From Mustelus asterias (Eukaryota), in contig NC_135809.1 in assembly GCF_964213995.1 (NCBI RefSeq), positions 59,520,001 to 59,584,000 on the forward strand: a DNA stretch of 64,000 nucleotides, written 5' to 3'. Under the pieces are notes generated by a model, which did no database searches, was not told where the DNA came from, and was given only the letters and a program-made list of their open reading frames with translations. Both the position numbers and the translations under genes were made by a program. The stretch's first letter is position 1; every line of letters begins with the position of its first letter. Below, one piece after another: positions 6,215-60,076 of this stretch.

Positions 6215-9200
6215 TACCAATATTCTGGGGGGGGGGAGATTTGCTAATGCTCTTCGGGAGGGTTTAAACTAATTCGGCAGGGGAGTGGGAACCTGAATTG
6301 TTGCTCCAGTGTACGGGAGGATGTGAGTGGTGAGGTCATGAATAAGGTTTCAAGGTCGCAGGAGTGTACCGGCAGGCAGGAAGGTGTTTTGAAGTGTGTC
6401 TACTTCAACGCCAGGAGCATCCGGAATAAGGTGGGTGAACTTGCAGCATGGGTTGGTACCTGGGACTTCGATGTTGTGGCCATCTCGGAGACATGGATAG
6501 AGCAGGGACAGGAATGGTTGTTGAAGGTTCCGAGGTTTAGATGTTTCAGTAAAATCAGAGGTGGTGGTAAAAGAGGGGCAGGTGTGGCATAGTTAGTCAA
6601 GGACAGTATTAGGGTGGCAGAAAGGATGTTTGATGAGGACTTGTCTACTGAGGTAGTATGGGCTGAGGTTAGAAACAGGAAAGGAGAGGTCACCCTGTTG
6701 GGAGTTTTCTATAGGTCTCTGAAAAGTTCCAGAGATGTAGAGGAAAGGATTGCAAAGATGATTCTGGATAGGAGCAAAAGTAACAGAGTAGTTGTTATGG
6801 GTGACTTTAACTTTACAAATATTGACGGGAAACTCTATAGTTCAAGTACGTTAGATGGGTCAGTTTTTGTCCAATGTGTGCAGGACGGTTTCCTGACACA
6901 GTATGTAGATAGGCCAACAAGAGGCGAAGCCACATTGGATTTGGTACTGGGTAATGAACCAGGCCAGGTGTTAGATTTGGAGGTAGGTGAGCACTTTGGT
7001 GATAGTGACCACAATTCGGTTACGTTTACTTTAGCGATGGAAAGGGATAGGTATATACCGCAGGGCAAGTGTTATAGCTGGGGGAAAGGAAATTATGATG
7101 TGATTAGGCGAGATTTAGGATGCATAGGATGGGGAAGAAATCTGCAGGGGATGGGCACAATTGAAATGTGGAGCTTGTTCAAGGAACAGCTACTGCGTGT
7201 CCTTGATAAGTATGGGGCAGCACGGTAGCACAGTGGTTAGCACTGCTGCTTCACAGCTCCAGGGTCCTGGGTTCGATTCCCGGCTCGGGTCACTGTCTGT
7301 GTGGAGTTTGCACATTCTCCTCGTGTCTGCGTGGGTTTCCTCCAGGTGCTCCGGTTTCCTCCCACAGTCCAAAGATGTGCGGGTTAGGTTGATTGGCCAG
7401 GTTAAAAATTGCCCCTTAGAGTCCTGGGATGCGTAGGTTAGAGGGATTAGTGGGTAAATATGTGCGGATAGGGCCTGGGTGGGATTGTGGTCGGTGCAGA
7501 CTCGATGGGCCGAATGGCCTCCTTCTGCACTGTAGGGTTTCTATGATTTCTATGATCTATGATGTACCTGTCAGGCAGGGAGGAAGTGGTTGAGTGAGGG
7601 AACCGTGGTTTACTAAAGAAGTTGAATCTCTTGTGAAGAGGAAGAAGGAGACTTATGTAAAGATGAGACATGAAGGCTCAGTTAGGGCGTTTGAGAGTTA
7701 CAAGTTAGCCAGGAAGGACCTGAAGAGAGAGCTAAGAAGGGCCAGGAGGGGACATGAGAAGTCTTTGGCAGGTAGGATCAAGGAAAACCCTAAAGCTTTC
7801 TATAGGTATGTCAGGAATAAAAGAATGACTAGGGTAAGATTAGGGCCAGTCAAGGACAGTAGTGGGAAGTTGTGCGTGGAGTCCGAAGAGATAGGAGAGG
7901 CGCTAAATGAATATTTTTCATCAGTATTCACACAGGAAAAAGACAACGTTGTCGAAGAGAATACTGAGATACAGGCTATTAGACTAGGCGGGATTGAGGT
8001 TAATAAGGAGGAGGTGTTAGCAATTCTGGAAAGTGTGAAAATAGATAAGTCCCCTGGGCCGGATGGGATTTATCCTAGGATTCTCTGGGAAGCTAGGGAG
8101 GAGATTGCAGAGCCTTTGGTTTTGATCTTTATGTCCTCGTTGTCTACAGGAATAGTGCCAGAAGACTGGAGGATAGCAAATGTTGTCCCCTTGTTCAAGA
8201 AGGGGAGTAGAGACAACCCTGGTAATTATAGACCAGTGAGCCTTACTTCTGTTGTGGGCAAAGTTTTGGAAAGGATTATCAGAGATAGGATTTATAATCA
8301 TCCAGAAAGGAACAATTTGATTAGGGATAGTCAACACGGTTTTGTGAAGGGTAGGTCGTGCCTCACAAAGCTTATTGAGTTCTTTGAGAAGGTGACCAAA
8401 GAGGTGGATGAGGGTAAAGCAGTTGATGTGGTGTATATGGATTTCAGTAAAGCATTTGATAAGGTTCCCCATGGTAAGCTATTGCAGAAAATACGGAGGC
8501 ATGGGATTGAGGGTGATTTTGCGGTTTGGATCAGAGATTGGCTAGCTGTAAGAAGACAGAGGGTGGTGGTTGATGGGAAATGTTCATCCTGGAGTTCAGT
8601 TACTAGTGGTGTACCGCAAGGATCTGTTTTGGGGCCACTGCTGTTGTCATTTTTATAAATGACCTGGACGAGGGCATAGAAGGATGGGCTAGTAAATTTG
8701 CGGATGACACTAAAGTCGGTGGAGTTGTGGACAGTGCGGAAGGATGTTGCAGGTTACAGAGGGACATAGATAAGCTGCAGAGCTGGGCTGAGAGGTGGCA
8801 AATGGAGTTTAATGCGGAAAAGTGTGAGGTGATTCACTTTGGAAGGAGTAACAAGAATACAGAGTACTGGGCTAATGGTAAGATACTTGGTAGTGTGGAT
8901 GAGCAGAGCGATCTCGGTGTCCATGTGCATAGATCCCTGAAAGTTGGCACCCAGGTTGATAGGGTTGTTAAGAAGGCGTACGGAGTGTTAGCTTTTATTG
9001 GTAGAGGGATTGAGTTTCGGAGCCATGATGTCATGTTGCAGCTGTACAAAACTCTGGTGCGGCCGCACTTGGAGTATTGCGTACAGTTCTGGTCGCCACA
9101 TTATAGGAAGGATGTGGAAGCATTGAAAAGGGTGCAGAGGAGATTTACCAGGATGTTGCCTGGTATGGTGGGCAGGTCTTATGAGGAAAGGCTGAGGGAC

Positions 9201-9588
9201 TTGAGGTTGTTTTCGTTAGAGAGAAGAAGGTTAAGAGCTGACTTAATAGAGGCATACAAGATGATCAGAGGATTAGATAGGGTGGACAGTGAGAGCCTTT
9301 TTCCTCGGATGGTGATGGCTAGCACGAGGGGACATAGCTTTAAATTGAGGGGTGACAGATATAGGACAGATGTCAGAGGTAGGTTCTTTACTCAGAGAGT
9401 GGTAAGGGCGTGGAATGCCCTGCCTGCAGCAGTAGTGGACTCGTCAACATTAAGGGCATTTAAATGGTAATTGGATAAACATATGGATGATATTGGAATA
9501 GTGTAGGTTAGAGGGGCTTTAGATTGGTTTCACAGGTTGGCGCAACATTGAGGGCCGAAGGGCCTGTACTGCGCTGTAATGTTCTATG
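6215..9588 (+). mobile_element. HER1-like CR1 LINE: end of ORF1, near-complete disrupted ORF2 (APE endonuclease + RT) and 3' tail
   Basis: ORF1 end ...RFANALREGLN*. APE motifs YFNARSI, ISETW, MGDFN, SDHN. RT motifs DFSKAFDKV, GVPQGSVLGP, FADD. Premature stops, a frameshift near 8655 and a SINE insertion at 7215. Confidence 0.97.
7215..7560 (+). mobile_element. Full-length HE1-like V-SINE inserted in CR1 ORF2
   Basis: tRNA-like head with A/B boxes (GTGGTTAG, GGTTCGATTCC), V-domain GTGTGGAGTTTGCACATTCTCC...GGTTTCCTCCCACAGTCCAAAGA and a (CTATGATT) tail. It splits GATAAGTATG|TACCTGTCAGG. Confidence 0.95.
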
Positions 9589-14505: not shown

Positions 14506-16596
14506 GAACTAATGAAAAGTGGAATTTTTTCAAGGAACAAATACTGGATGTCCTTGATAGGTATGTTCCTGTCAGGCAGGGAGGAAATGGCCGAGTGAGG
14601 GAACCATGGTTCACAAAAGAGGTGGAATGTCTTGTGAAAAGGAAGAGGGAAGCTTATGTAGGGATGAGGAAACAAGGTTCAGATGGCTCGATTGAGGGTT
14701 ACAAGTTAGCAAGGAATGAGCTGAAAAAGGGGCTTAGGAGAGCTAGGAGGGGACATGAGAAGTCCTTGGCGGGTCGGATCAAGGAAAACCCCAAGGCTTT
14801 TTACTCTTATGTGAGGAATAAAAGAATGACCAGGGTGAGGTTAGGGCCGGTCAAGGACAGTAGTGGGAACTTGTGTATGGAGTCAGTAGAGATAGGCGAG
14901 GTGATGAATGAATACTTTTCTTCAGTGTTCACCAAGGAGAGGGGCCATGTTTTTGAGGAAGAGAAGGTGTTACAGGCTAATAGGCTGGAGGAAATAGATG
15001 TTCGGAGGGAGGATGTCTTGGCAGTTTTGAATAAACTGAAGGTCGATAAGTCCCCTGGGCCTGATGAAATGTATCCTAGGATTCTTTGGGAGGCAAGGGA
15101 TGAGATTGCAGAGCCTTTGGCGTTGATCTTTGGGTCCTCGCTGTCCACGGGGATGGTGCCAGAGGACTGGAGAATGGCGAATGTTGTTCCTCTGTTTAAG
15201 AAAGGGAATAGAAATGACCCTGGTAATTATAGACCGGTTAGTCTTACTTCGGTGGTTGGTAAATTGATGGAAAGGGTCCTTAGGGATGGGATTTACGACC
15301 ATTTAGAAAGATGCGGATTAATCCGAGATAGTCAGCACGGATTCGTGAAGGGCAAGTCGTGCCTCACAAATTTGATAGAATTTTTTGAGGAGGTAACTAA
15401 GTGTGTTGATGAAGGTAGGGCAGTTGATGTCATATACATGGATTTTAGTAAGGCGTTTGATAAGGTCCCCCATGGTCGGCTTATGATGAAAGTGAGGAGG
15501 TGTGGGATAGAGGGAAAGTTGGCCGATTGGATAGGTAACTGGCTGTCTGACCGAAGACAGAGGGTGGTGGTCGATGGAAAATTTTCGGATTGGAGGCAGG
15601 TTGCTTGCGGTGTGCCGCAGGGATCAGTGCTTGGTCCTCTGCTCTTTGTGATTTTTATTAACGACTTAGAGGAGGGGGCTGAAGGGTGGATCAGTAAATT
15701 TGCTGATGACACCAAGATTGGTGGAGTAGTGGATGAGGTGGAGGGCTGTTGTAGGCTGCAAAGAGACATAGATAGGATGCAAAGCTGGGCTGAAAAATGG
15801 CAAATGGAGTTTAACCCTGATAAATGTGAGGTGATTCATTTTGGTAGGACAAATTTAAATGTGGATTACAGGGTCAAAGGTAGGGTTCTGAAGACTGTGG
15901 AGGAACAGAGAGATCTTGGGGTCCATATCCACAGATCTCTAAAGGTTGCCAGTCAAGTGGATAGAGCTGTGAAGAAGGCCTATAGTGTGTTAGCTTTTAT
16001 TAACAGGGGGTTGGAGTTTAAGAGCCGTGGGGTTATGCTGCAACTGTACAGGACCTTGGTGAGACCACATTTGGAATATTGTGTGCAGTTCTGGTCACCT
16101 CACTATAGGAAGGATGTGGAAGCGCTGGAAGGAGTGCAGAGGAGATTTACCAGGATGCTGCCTGGTTTGGAGGGTAGGTCATATGAGGAAAGGTTGAGGG
16201 AGCTAGGGCTGTTCTCTCTGGAGCGGAGGAGGCTGAGGGGAGACTTAATAGAGGTGTATAAAATGATGAAGGGGATAGATAGAGTGAACGTTCAAAGACT
16301 ATTTCCTCGGGTGGATGGAGCTATTACAAGGGGGCATAACTATAGGGTTCGTGGTGGGAGATACAGGACGGATATCAGAGGTAGGTTCTTTACGCAGAGA
16401 GTGGTTGGGGTGTGGAATGGACTGCCTGCAGTGATAGTGGAGTCAGACACTTTAGAAACATTTAAGCGGTTATTGGATAGGCACATGGAGCACACCAGGA
16501 TGATAGGGAGTGGGATAGCTTGATCTTGGTTTCAGATAAAGCTCGGCACAACATCGTGGGCCGAAGGGCCTGTTCTGTGCTGTACTGTTCTATGTT
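14506..16596 (+). mobile_element. Young 5'-truncated CR1 (HER1-like) LINE
   Basis: Uninterrupted RT frame. The 3' UTR ends GGGCCGAAGGGCCTGTTCTGTGCTGTACTGTTCTATGTT. Confidence 0.97.
14595..16523 (+). CDS. CR1 ORF2 reverse transcriptase domain (open frame, but no endonuclease or promoter)
   Basis: 642 aa with YRPVSLTS, QHGF, DFSKAFDKVPH, GVPQGSVLGP, FADD and LVRPHLEYCVQFWSP motifs. Confidence 0.9.
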   Translation: MREPWFTKEVECLVKRKREAYVGMRKQGSDGSIEGYKLARNELKKGLRRARRGHEKSLAGRIKENPKAFYSYVRNKRMTRVRLGPVKDSSGNLCMESVEIGEVMNEYFSSVFTKERGHVFEEEKVLQANRLEEIDVRREDVLAVLNKLKVDKSPGPDEMYPRILWEARDEIAEPLALIFGSSLSTGMVPEDWRMANVVPLFKKGNRNDPGNYRPVSLTSVVGKLMERVLRDGIYDHLERCGLIRDSQHGFVKGKSCLTNLIEFFEEVTKCVDEGRAVDVIYMDFSKAFDKVPHGRLMMKVRRCGIEGKLADWIGNWLSDRRQRVVVDGKFSDWRQVACGVPQGSVLGPLLFVIFINDLEEGAEGWISKFADDTKIGGVVDEVEGCCRLQRDIDRMQSWAEKWQMEFNPDKCEVIHFGRTNLNVDYRVKGRVLKTVEEQRDLGVHIHRSLKVASQVDRAVKKAYSVLAFINRGLEFKSRGVMLQLYRTLVRPHLEYCVQFWSPHYRKDVEALEGVQRRFTRMLPGLEGRSYEERLRELGLFSLERRRLRGDLIEVYKMMKGIDRVNVQRLFPRVDGAITRGHNYRVRGGRYRTDIRGRFFTQRVVGVWNGLPAVIVESDTLETFKRLLDRHMEHTRMIGSGIA

Positions 16597-40180: not shown

Positions 40181-41444
40181 TCTGAGTCTTTCTTTGCATG
40201 GGTGAAGCTATAGTAAAGATCTCATTTCATCGTATTCTGATGGCCAAATCACAGTATAAGCAAGGAAATAGAAAAGAAAATGTAGCAATGATGGTTTATG
40301 AAAAACGACTTAAATCTCTTGTGTTTGCTGAGCTGTGTTGACTCAATCATTGCCTTCATCTCTCAGCAACATTACATTTCTTTGGCTAAGCAATTATGAA
40401 AGTTCACATTGTAAATAATTCTCACAAGGTGTTCGGAAAAGAAAAATTATGATTTGGACTTAAACTGCCATTAAGAGTACCCCAGAGTACTCCTTCACAG
40501 AAAATATTAGCCGTGCAGACTAAAAAAACGACCCCTGATCGAATGAGTTATTTCAGTCAAGGTAGAAATAAAGGCAACATGTTTGGTTTAATTGCTCCTT
40601 AACACAGCTTCTTTTTGAGGTAAAGCTGAGTTGCCAATGAATTACATTTTGAAGTCCAGAATTCTGTGCATTTTATTACAAGCTATCTAGAACTGACCAG
40701 GAGATATATAAAAACAATCAATCCAAGTGATTTGTACATCAAAACATTTCTGTGGTGCTACTAAATAGCTACCGAAACTTTTTTTTCTTCCATGCCTGCC
40801 TGATCTATTTAACTGGAAGTTAGGTTTTACACAATGCTTCTGTGGAACTATAAAAGCCAGATGCCACCTGAAAAATCAGGCAGAACGGTTATAAAAATCT
40901 GTGAAGCAGCACAGAAAATTCAAAGGATTTTGGTCAGAATTCTCTGGCTGTTCACGGCAGCAAGATCTTCTGGTCCTGCTGACAATGTACCTCCGACACG
41001 GGTTTTCCGGTGGTGTGGGGTGGAGTCAAATGGAAATCCCATTGACAGCGGAGGAACCAGAAGATCCCACTGCTGGTTAATGGCCGTCTCCTCCCACCAT
41101 GAGAAATTCTCCCACTGGAGAATACCCCCCTTTATCTAGTCTTAGGAGTCCAGTTAAAAAGTCAGAGCTGAAGTCTGTCATTTGGAAGATTTGATGAGGG
41201 AGGTTAATGTTTATGGCAGGGTGAGGAGCGGATACCTTAACCATCCACTGCTTATTTCACCCCAGCATTGGCAGCCTTTAGCCATCTCAGCCTTAAACTC
41301 CACAGGCGCAATGTTACTGACTGTTCATGCCCCACAACCACTGCACGCGAGGATGGAGAATTCGGCACTCAGCTCCGTTCATGGCAGCGAGACCAGAAAA
41401 TCCTGCCGGCACGAACGGCCCGAAAAAAACCCACCCCAAGATTC

Positions 41445-41727
41445 CTTCACCCCCACCACCCGCATTCCCCCCTCCCTCACCCCCACCACCCGCATTCCCC
41501 CCTCCCTCCCTCACCCCCACCACCCGCATTCCCCCCTCCCTCACCCCCACCACCCGCATTCCCCCCTCCCTCACCCCCACCACCCGCATTCCCCCCTCCC
41601 TCACCCCCACCACCCGCATTCCCCCCTCCCTCACCCCCACCACCCGCATTCCCCCCTCCCTCACCCCACCACCCGCATTCCCCCCTCCCTCACCCCCACC
41701 ACCCGCATTCCCCCCTCCCTCCCCCCC
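41445..41727. repeat. C-rich minisatellite, ~30-bp unit (TCACCCCCACCACCCGCATTCCCCCCTCCC), about 9 copies
   Basis: Direct tandem repetition. It generates the spurious Pro/His-rich ORFs. Confidence 0.97.
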
Positions 41728-42431
41728 TCTTCTCTCTCTCTTTGGTGACATGCTTAAAGCCGACCTTTCTGACCAAACATTTGGCCACTTGTCCTATCTC
41801 TCCTTCTTTGCTTCAGTGTCCATTTTTTCTATACGATTACCCTCCTTCAAATGCCTTGGGACATTTTACTGTATGAAAGCCACACACACAGACACACACA
41901 AACATGCACACACACTCACGTGTGTGGACTCACAGGCACATGTGCACACAGACACACGTGCATATATACAGACACCCACGCCACAGGGACTGCAGCATTT
42001 CAAGGCAGCTCACCACCACCTTCTCAAGGGCAATCAGGGATGGGCAATAAATATCAGTCTTACCAATGACACCCATATCCTATAAATGAATCTAATATAG
42101 CACACACACACACAACTGATATTCATGGGCCTCTAGTTTTGTTGGTCTCAAACCCTGCAGCCAGGCCTACCTGGACACAGGAACTGACCATCTCTTAAAT
42201 AGGGTTGCCAGCTCAGGCTGGACATATTCCATGAGATGTCGGCAGAAGTGGCAACACAAAGTCAGCAGCGTGCTGCGTGTGGGTTCTAGGTTTCTGAGTT
42301 GGCTGTACGAATGGAGAAAATACTAATTCTTCCCCACCTCCTCATTCTGCTGTCAATGTGCAATAGTGGGCTGGAGGACGGAGGGGGAACAGATGCTGGA
42401 AACATGGGCAACAATAAGATCTCAATTTAAC

Positions 42432-57482: not shown

Positions 57483-57991
57483 CCTTTAGCTTTTGCTTCA
57501 GTTTCCTCAGGGACTCCAAAAAATCCCCATACCCTGGAGACAATATTAAAAAATAATTATCTTAAAGGCAAACATAAAACGGATCCATTTTCCATTATAT
57601 TCTCATCCACAACTGGTTGCACTTCTACAATATATAGTTTAATTGCATGAATTTATTATTTTCAATCTACTCTCAAAGCTCCTTTTCAGGAAGGCACTTT
57701 CATTCGTCTGGAACTATCCTGTCCATGCTGCTAGTTAGCATATATTGATCTTGTTCACAGAAATATTCACCACAAAGGTTAAAGGTACTGCCTCTCAAGG
57801 TGTTCCAGTCAAGCTCCTCCTTTACAACTACAACTGGAAGTTGAGCAGCAGCGCTATGGGAAAAGAATAGGAGTAACTGAATAGCTACTTTAAAAGGAAG
57901 CCACAGGTATGATGGCTCTCTCTGTGCTGTACGATGCCATAATTCTAAGATAACTTTGTAATTGTGGATCTACACCAATGCGACCACCAGC

Positions 57992-58443
57992 TAAAAACCT
58001 TTTGGCTAAGATCAAGTGTAGTATGGACGGTATGGGTTGCCCGTCCGTGCTGTGCTTGGTTGGGGTCATTAGGTTATATTATAAGCTTCATTTAAAAATG
58101 AATCAATTTTTAAAAACCGGCATCTCGGCCTTTTTTGGCTGAGATGCAAATGAGATCAGCCTTGGAGGAGGTGGGCTTGCGCCTGCTCCAATCAGCTTGT
58201 CTCATGTAGATCAAGCCCGAGATGGAGGCTGCAGAACCTGGTATGCATGATGTGGAGATGCCGGCGTTGGACTGGGGTAAACACAGTAAACCTGTTGGAC
58301 TTTAACCTGGTGTTGTTAAACTTCTTACTGAACCTGGTATGGCCACAGGGGATGCAGACTCTGTCTTGTCAGCTTGGATCAGGAATGTCTCAACTTGTTG
58401 AGACTTTGAATTGGATTTGATTTGATTGGAAAAGTTAAAAAAA
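57992..58443 (+). mobile_element. U2 snRNA-derived composite retroposed element (copy B)
   Basis: 57998-58024 is an exact match to U2 nt 13-39 (CCTTTTGGCTAAGATCAAGTGTAGTAT). Second U2 stem-I-like unit at 58120-58147, A-tail, and perfect TSD AATGCGACCACCAGC (57977-57991 and 58444-58458). Confidence 0.85.
58246..58329. mobile_element. Mini PLE family A insertion (inverted + forward pLTR pieces) nested in the U2-derived element
   Basis: Matches 12576-12617 and 12243-12285. 12-bp TSD GAACCTGGTATG at 58234-58245 and 58330-58341. Confidence 0.88.
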
Positions 58444-60076
58444 AATGCGACCACCAGCCATAAGTAAAAGACTCCCATTTATATTACACGTTATCACATC
58501 CCAGAACACTTCATCTGCATCGAGCCACCTTGCAGTGACCATTGAATAAATATGGGCATCATTTAAACACTGCAAGATCCCATAGAGAGTAATGGACAAA
58601 TGCCTAATTAAGCAACTCTGCTGGTGTTATGGGAGAAATGAACATTGGCTTAAATAGTGGATGTTTCGGGCAAATGGTGCCCGGAATGTGTTACACCCGC
58701 TTAAAACCTGGAACAGGCAGGGAGGGCCTCAGATTAATGGACTGGAGCTCACTGGAAAATAATGGCAAGTGCACAATGCTCGCCACTATTGACGTACAAA
58801 TCAGCTAGCAACTTAAGGCAATGAAGAAATATGCCATTAGTTGAGAATTGCCAAAATGGCCTTGTCAATTTATGCAGTTCTGCCATTTGCTTTGCACTAT
58901 AATCATCTTGCCTTTTGCCCTGCAGTTATTTTCAAGTACTTTCTGGATTGCATTTTAATTGCCTGTTAAACTTGCCACAGAAAGTTATATCTGGTAATTA
59001 AGAATATAAGTATTCTTAACAGCATGATAATTGTTAATGCAATGCCAATTAACACCCTGGTCCAGAAACTGAACAATTCAAATTGTGGAATCTCATTCCA
59101 ACAGGTAGTAAATAAGACCATAAGATATAGGAGGAGAAGTAGGCCATTGAGTCTGCTCCTCTATTCACTGAAATGCATGGCAGGCAGAACTATTTATTGA
59201 ATAGACTTTTGCTGTTAACCTTGGTCGTGTTGTCATAAAATATATCACTGTGAACACATGGCTAGAGGGATCTCGAGTTACTTGTGTTAGGGCAGAAAGG
59301 AAATGCACACAAATCTTTCCTCAGGAGGTAAAATGATTCACCATTTCGGTAACAAGATGAATTAAACATACGAGTGTGGGAGGACTGGGCCAGTCAGACT
59401 AAATAGTCTTTCCTCAGCCTATATTCTATATATTCATTTTTCCATCTTTTCTTGGTTTGAGCAGGACTTAATAAATCTTATCTCATTTGCATGTGCAGCA
59501 CTAATCAATCATGGTTTTCATGAATAGGAAGAAGAATTTGCCAATGAACAGAAAAGATGTGAGAAACGGGCTGTACTATTGTAAGCAAAAACTCCCATGA
59601 TAGTGGCCATGGAAAACAAAGAACCAAGAATTTCACCTGTGCTTGAAAAGTATCCTCCAGTCTTCAGACACAAAGCTCTCTCAGAGTTGGTCAAGCCAAG
59701 CTGCAGTTTGACCTTTGCCATTTTGACCTTGGTGGTAATAAGGCCGGTTCAGACTCTTGTTGCCCGGGAATCAGGCTCTTCCAAGGACAAAACTCTTTGC
59801 ACAATAATCCACTACTCAGCAGATGGTAAAACTAATCACAATATTTCCTCATGGCTCCTGTGAAGATTTTCTTTTGTCTGTTAGGTTCCACCAGACCACA
59901 GGGTCCGAAGTTAACAAAACAATCAACTATTTAGTCTTCTTGAGAATTGTTTTCATCCCACAGCCATTTCTGTTAATGACAGCACCAGAATATCATGAAT
60001 TGATTCCAAACATGCAGTAAACCATTCCAATGAGAAGGGGGTCCCCTTACCGACCACTGCAAACAATGGGCCCATC

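Follow-up and report, generated by a model that had tools for sequence, protein, structure and literature searches.

A U2-headed SINE family in Mustelus asterias whose fold has probably been selected for retroposition

INTRODUCTION

A 64,000-nt stretch of the Mustelus asterias genome (assembly GCF_964213995.1, contig NC_135809.1, positions 59,520,001 to 59,584,000; hereafter the window) contains near its end a chain of near-perfect hairpins beside sequence resembling U2 snRNA, raising the question of what such a structure is and what has kept it paired. The original prediction, made from the letters alone, saw at 58023-58404 a U2-derived element whose sequence had diverged while selection on RNA structure preserved its pairing, and it offered three functions: a variant snRNA, an snRNP decoy or an RT-recruiting RNA. 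We followed the locus through its layout, its genomic family, its insertion sites, the fate of its base pairs and the DNA upstream of its relatives.

RESULTS

Layout of the locus

All five arm pairs that had been proposed are present at their coordinates, and the interval does fold in excess: 58023-58404 reaches -143.8 kcal/mol (z -5.17, equalled by 0 of 100 shuffles), whereas none of 41 other 382-nt stretches taken from the window went below -128.1 kcal/mol. The hairpin at 58023-58048 exists, but merely as the tip of a predicted 21-bp stem, P1 (58010-58030 with 58041-58061), that begins within the U2 head. The arms TTCATTT/AAATGAA (58087-58102) are likewise there, but at most six of their seven pairs can form, because the loop would be 2 nt; the family form of this hairpin (P2) is GCTTCA/TGAAGC, and the window copy is one pair short of it. 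The reading of 58120-58147 as a more fully paired U2 stem I was borne out, local alignment identifying a second copy of U2 nt 4-33, as was the nested hairpin at 58150-58205, which is P4 of the family. The proposal that 58387-58404 occupies the stem IIb position failed: this stem-loop lies about 390 nt beyond the head, is nearly invariant in the family and has no U2 likeness, the body (three subfamily bodies) aligning to U2 solely at the second stem I copy. The interval is structured, but it is not a unit, for a foreign 84-bp insert lies inside it and splits a sixth long hairpin, P5, absent from the earlier list. 'U2-derived' is thus right for the head and the second stem I and wrong for the remainder; and since most of the body is not U2-homologous, it did not diverge from U2 with its pairing kept.

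The SINE copy that we recognize instead runs from 57998 to 58443 and is bracketed by both copies of a 15-bp duplication (Table 1). Once the insert is set aside, 335 positions align with its subfamily consensus and 6 of them differ, one of these differences disrupting a P2 pair. It is a dead copy, showing decay rather than constraint.

Table 1. Features of the SINE copy, in window coordinates
Feature	Position	Strand	Basis
Target site duplication, 5' copy, 15 bp	57977..57991	+	repeat-pair search, arm check
Six additional bases between duplication and head; origin unexplained	57992..57997	+	sequence
U2-derived head, U2 nt 13-39; 5'-truncated (full copies begin at U2 nt 1)	57998..58024	+	
P1, predicted 21-bp stem; U2 nt 25-39, including GUAGUA, with downstream complement	58010..58061	+	
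P2, small hairpin; stem length differs among subfamilies	58085..58104	+	
U/A-rich linker, unpaired; lacks G of canonical Sm site	58105..58119	+	sequence, fold
P3, second copy of U2 nt 4-33 (stem I), pairing more complete	58120..58147	+	local alignment
ATGCAAAT octamer, made by 3' end of P3	58143-58150	+	
P4, nested hairpin, loop variable	58150..58205	+	
P5, long hairpin, interrupted in window copy by insert	58209..58380	+	
12-bp duplication of insert, 5' copy	58234..58245	+	
Secondary insert, 84 bp: two pieces of an abundant, unrelated repeat, oriented against each other	58246..58329	.	
12-bp duplication of insert, 3' copy	58330..58341	+	
P6, terminal stem-loop, 7 bp, nearly invariant	58387..58404	+	
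3' tail, short ATTTG/ATTGA repeats, terminus Keno-like	58407..58436	+	
Poly(A)	58437..58443	+	sequence
Target site duplication, 3' copy	58444..58458	+	

The repeat that forms the insert was found in 87 of the 228 sequences compared, and six members of the window's subfamily (L008, L009, L013, L015, L017 and the window copy) carry it within P5, five of them at nearly one site, in a sample of carriers that is biased because the query contained the insert. Its inverted form may recall Penelope-like elements. Elsewhere the window holds tandem repeats with units of 20 nt and 15 nt (1-1340 and 41413-41751) and two LINE copies with long RT-like frames (6593-9470 and 14508-16523), about 7 kb apart and 74-82% alike; its long ORFs, judged by eye, resemble LINE pieces or simple repeats. 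The Rfam search of the 64-kb window gave 0 matches at gathering score, and at E<=10 a weak U2 match was the only meaningful one.

A young SINE family with a U2 head

A genome search returned dispersed copies of the SINE, with at least 5,191 exact matches to P6 (control 0). We extracted 116 copies, a sample biased toward the four queries used, and aligned 115, which fall into at least 10 subfamilies of two or more copies each plus 10 singletons. Copies diverge by 0.9-2.4% from their own subfamily consensus. The head of full copies, nt 1-39, is identical to the U2 genes of this genome, an exact start at U2 nt 1 being found in 29 of 112 copies, and the junction of head and body falls at the Keno site (below) in all subfamilies. 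Target duplications of 9-21 bp were identified at 41 of the 82 copies whose 5' flank is not SINE sequence. The elements are short, non-coding, poly(A)-tailed and target-duplicated, and have one family structure rather than that of independent chimeric retrocopies.

When the bodies of three of the 10 subfamily consensuses were compared with U2, U1, U4 and the local Keno UTRs, the second U2 nt 4-33 copy alone aligned. U1 or U4 modules were rejected (no local alignment at p<0.05), as was capture of U2 upstream DNA, to which no likeness was found; nor is the SINE an internally deleted Keno, because it has no local alignment at that threshold to either the 5' or the 3' UTR of the local Keno, their likeness being confined to a short terminus. 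The octamer (58143-58150) and a CCAAT-like motif (58187-58195) are both nearly invariant across the family. Three loci on different contigs (L095, L102 and L117) have common flanks, indicating segmental duplication or assembly redundancy, and three others (L153, L155 and L156) are chimeric inserts composed of SINE, poly(A), a piece of U2 that begins at nt 38 and a fragment of Tx1.

The canonical Sm site has the consensus RAU4-6GR, and the GUAGUA of U2 comprises its branch-point-pairing bases. Both bear on whether these could be retrocopies shed by the genes of a host-functional variant snRNA or snRNP decoy, a reading to which one might be drawn by the conserved fold, by the U2 upstream DNA preceding some copies (below) and by the U-rich linker, which lies between two hairpins at the place expected of an Sm site. 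Identity as a U2 snRNA gene fails at 20.8 bits for RF00004 against a gathering cut-off of 46, however, and a free branch-point-pairing sequence was rejected, GUAGUA being paired in P1 and the linker having no G after its U run. The poly(A) and target duplications also fit an snRNA poorly, while the putative genes vary among themselves, have Keno copies lying between them and terminate in poly(A), and we saw no homogenised gene array of the element such as U1 and U2 have. We therefore regard a host snRNA or decoy as highly improbable; of the functions first offered, an RT-recruiting RNA, in the form of a SINE, is the one that fits.

Insertion at the Keno site and tandem arrays

The 8-kb unit of a U2 array carries a Tx1 LINE with a U2 head, inserted just ahead of nt 38 of U2 with a duplication of 21 bp and encoding a ZCCHC3-type ORF1, an endonuclease and an RT. 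In both U2 arrays this LINE sits at U2 nt 37/38, which is the Keno/Utopia junction described in PMC4640811. The SINE uses the same place: U2 nt 38 onward comes directly after eleven SINE tails (control 0), one of these SINEs (L163) being immediately preceded by the 3' end of a Keno within the main U2 array, and the last bases before poly(A) are alike in SINE and Keno. Dispersed insertion sites follow a relaxed form of the Keno site GTGTAGT/ATCTG (slash, nick), with G[TC]/A at 17 of 41 nick sites against a background of 14.6% (p 3e-5; the +1 A is partly set by the definition used) and a matching T at -6 in 25 of 41. The target preference is thus common to SINE and LINE, suggesting that the LINE mobilises the SINE.

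The array unit at L061 (G000:C24:44838000-44847500) is 8,035 bp long, repeats at least 13 times among the matches listed and combines an intact U2 gene with a truncated U2 and a broken Keno, so that a dead LINE copy was apparently amplified along with the array; an adjacent 1,833-bp array is without the LINE. At G000:C21:28046000-28086000 (L194-L197), 448-bp units of a second, divergent type of U2 gene, whose 3' half is unlike main U2, form a cluster in which at least five Keno copies, a single SINE and inversions are interspersed.

SINE copies cluster head to tail: among the first 100 listed, 16 lie no more than 400 bp from another copy on the same strand, where 0.06 would be expected. Such crowding might suggest that the 3' part of the SINE holds an snRNA-type promoter driving the next tandem copy, in the manner of HeT-A, the more so as in two arrays the octamer ATGCAAAT precedes the following head by 185-228 nt, a spacing typical of an snRNA enhancer, and the U1 and U4 genes of this genome have comparable octamer-type motifs near -200 (-196 to -227). 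The octamer, however, arises from U2 stem I by two changes that pairing explains, the tail scores as PSE-like at no better than P 0.06-0.75, and the body, as noted, is unlike U2 upstream DNA. Moreover, the first duplication recurs between tandem units that belong to different subfamilies, which is the pattern predicted if one nick is used repeatedly. A promoter in the tail is the least probable of the explanations that we weighed. The flanks analysed for the main U2 arrays (L038 and L031) contain no exact octamer.

Inherited and private changes in the stems

All 10 subfamily consensuses fold better than their shuffles (z -4.8 to -11.8, 30 shuffles each), the + strand beats the - strand by 21-45 kcal/mol in 10 of 10, and RNAalifold on 18 diverse copies returns the same six helices, of which P1, 21 bp in the window's subfamily, is the predicted strongest. 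Covariation across family copies, which the original prediction had led one to expect, did not appear: RNAalifold reported it for 0 of 93 pairs (18 diverse copies), and classical two-sided changes affected 1 of 81 pairs, a value as high in 399 of 500 shuffles. The family is too young for such a test, and we therefore set inherited changes, those that differ among subfamily consensuses and so have passed through source genes, against private changes present in a single copy. The count covered 82 core pairs and excluded two variable pairs as well as two segmental duplicates; it used a structure model drawn from one subfamily consensus, the subfamilies being related and mosaic.

Inherited changes kept 16 pairs and broke 5, against 60 and 68 for private changes (Fisher p 0.017), and three of the five inherited breaks come from one subfamily in which the P1 tip is re-paired in another register. 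Inherited alleles were also scarce in stems, 22 at 164 stem columns vs 61 at 130 other columns (p 3.5e-10), the latter class including poorly aligning hairpin and loop tips; the private rates per site were 0.0081 and 0.0118, respectively. Nine of 11 indel blocks touch no pair. Eight of nine subfamilies have fewer broken pairs than simulated mutants at P<=0.04 (0.087 for the ninth), and a mismatch in P4 has been closed in two ways, as C-G in three subfamilies and as A-U in the window's. Transitions away from Watson-Crick pairs yielded 14 G-U and 1 A-C among inherited changes, 39 G-U and 29 A-C among private ones.

Could mutation alone have made the hairpins, whether by fold-back template switching or by A-to-I editing of the source RNA, with no selection on structure? 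The 3' arm of P1 complements the head, so a fold-back origin is possible for it, 10 of the 15 one-sided inherited changes are A to G when the commonest state is taken as ancestral, and two-sided covariation, as just described, is not significant. Private stem mutations nonetheless bear no editing signature, A>G at 13 of 3153 sites and T>C at 15 of 4268 (p 0.70), and because these rates are equal, editing does not explain the G-U bias that separates inherited from private transitions. Fold-back would give Watson-Crick palindromes equal on both strands, whereas here the + strand folds much better, and the scarcity of inherited changes in stems would be left unexplained. We consider mutation alone very unlikely.

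Constraint on the structure in source lineages, and not in settled copies, is supported, and this is as expected of selection on retroposition. Selection on RNA structure, as originally claimed, thus holds among the source lineages of the subfamilies but not for the window copy, which shows decay. The contrast of inherited with private mutations reveals selection on the RNA structure of the SINE where covariation tests are powerless.

Upstream DNA and possible transcription

The upstream DNA common to three SINE loci proved to be the spacer of the second U2 gene type (448-bp units), which sits directly before intact U2 genes. Seventeen spacer copies extend as far as the start site. What follows is the SINE in 6, Keno in 5, an intact U2 in 3 and broken or chimeric sequence in 3. 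At all six spacer-led SINE loci a single U2 head is fused seamlessly to the SINE, and at L164, L172 and L174 the remainder of U2 comes after the poly(A). Two retrocopies (L157 and L088) have U2 sequence past nt 39 along with the SINE, and two more (L173 and L177) have spacer inside their own duplications; carrying U2-locus DNA, these four indicate that RNA from such loci was retroposed. The window's subfamily is absent from the six spacer-led loci, several of which are themselves retrocopies and may be dead. As a candidate promoter, for which a PSE would be expected at about -60, the spacer reaches P 0.06 when scored with a weak U1/U4 matrix, the main U2 upstream region itself scoring P 0.46. 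A SINE behind the upstream motif of the main U2 array was sought with one head variant and rejected, the one match being a chance flank.

The same SINE and LINE could instead draw their RNA from read-through, out of an upstream Keno, a U2 unit or a flanking gene, the ends at U2 nt 1 arising when reverse transcription switches template onto U2 snRNA, a mechanism proposed for the crocodilian SINEU. Since L173 and L177 begin upstream of the U2 start site, read-through RNAs do exist as templates; L088 and L179 have an extra U2 piece at their 5' end, and repeated 5' additions of snRNA pieces were reported by Kojima (PMC4494074). This account is nevertheless unlikely in our judgement, given that head and body meet at the Keno site in every subfamily, that at most one base matches either U2 upstream region in 28 of the 29 copies starting at nt 1, and that six loci show the seamless fusion. 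As a signature of the source U2 gene the upstream bases are uninformative, 5 matching bases occurring in 1 of those 29 copies.

DISCUSSION

On balance, we think it probable that the window holds a decayed copy of a U2-headed SINE whose family is moved by a Keno-type Tx1 LINE and transcribed from fusions with U2 genes, and whose fold is selected for retroposition and not for a host function. The cycle would begin with Keno proteins nicking U2 genes at nt 37/38, where the head of the SINE would anneal to the target's own U2 nt 1-39 to give a seamless gene of promoter, U2 head and SINE. RNA from such genes would be copied into relaxed Keno-like sites, repeat use of the same nick would leave head-to-tail arrays, and any new insertion in a U2 gene could found a new subfamily, with descendants left solely by sources whose RNA retains the fold. 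P1, by hiding the branch-point-pairing bases, may keep this RNA out of splicing.

More tentatively, and we hold this as a possibility that is rather doubtful in its entirety, the SINE may be a parasite of snRNA expression, one that renews its sources by fusing seamlessly with U2 genes at the Keno site and, through retroposition of read-through RNA, spreads U2 promoters as portable units. Its RNA would be under selection to lock the branch-point-pairing sequence, so that a transcript with U2 promoter and U2 cap escapes the spliceosome to the LINE machinery. Because the family is young and comes with candidate source loci that are intact, a partner LINE in the same genome and natural variants of the stems, the question of transcription is directly testable.

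The nearest known relatives are the crocodilian SINEU-1, -2 and -3, and we compare them through their report (Kojima 2015, PMC4494074). Like the family here, they have a U2-derived head, an extra internal U2 piece, a length below 500 bp, poly(A), target duplications and tandem insertion around a duplication, together with oligo-T runs that argue against Pol III and a Tx1 partner with a U2 head; the arrangement of tandem units seen in our arrays was described for SINEU-3. In the features tested, our family thus appears to work like SINEU, whose bodies were compared by description rather than by sequence. The host differs, that text placing SINEU in no genome outside crocodilians, and so do the targets, Mariner-N4 for SINEU against the Keno site of U2 and relaxed look-alikes of it here, solo copies having flanks that by eye are mostly unrelated. 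Unlike SINEU, our family is young, its copies lying 1-2% from consensus, and copies fused behind U2 upstream DNA, which we observe, are absent from the main text of the SINEU report. SINEU is there described as without a promoter, its transcription being left as an open question; transcription from source copies fused in U2 genes is, from the arrangement of these loci, a likely answer. We found no report of a U2-headed SINE in a cartilaginous fish in the literature searched, which lay outside Repbase, Dfam and most subscription papers, and as far as that literature goes our results extend snRNA-headed SINEs beyond crocodilians.

With Keno (Tx1) and Utopia, as PMC4640811 and PMC4494074 describe them, the SINE has in common the 3' junction at U2 nt 38/39, the U2 head and tandem insertion, and its last bases before poly(A) are similar to theirs. 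Unlike Keno it is non-coding, has no significant UTR alignment and lies, in most copies, outside U2 genes. With U2 snRNA (RF00004) it has nt 1-39 in identical form, plus the second nt 4-33 copy, but stems IIa/IIb, III and IV and a canonical Sm site are missing and the branch-point-pairing region is paired away. R2 and the R2-derived SINEs of 28S rDNA have no promoter of their own and are co-transcribed with the target gene. Those SINEs have another target and another enzyme class, and no ribozyme was seen by Rfam match in ours; the two groups would nonetheless be alike in being promoterless and co-transcribed with the gene that they invade.
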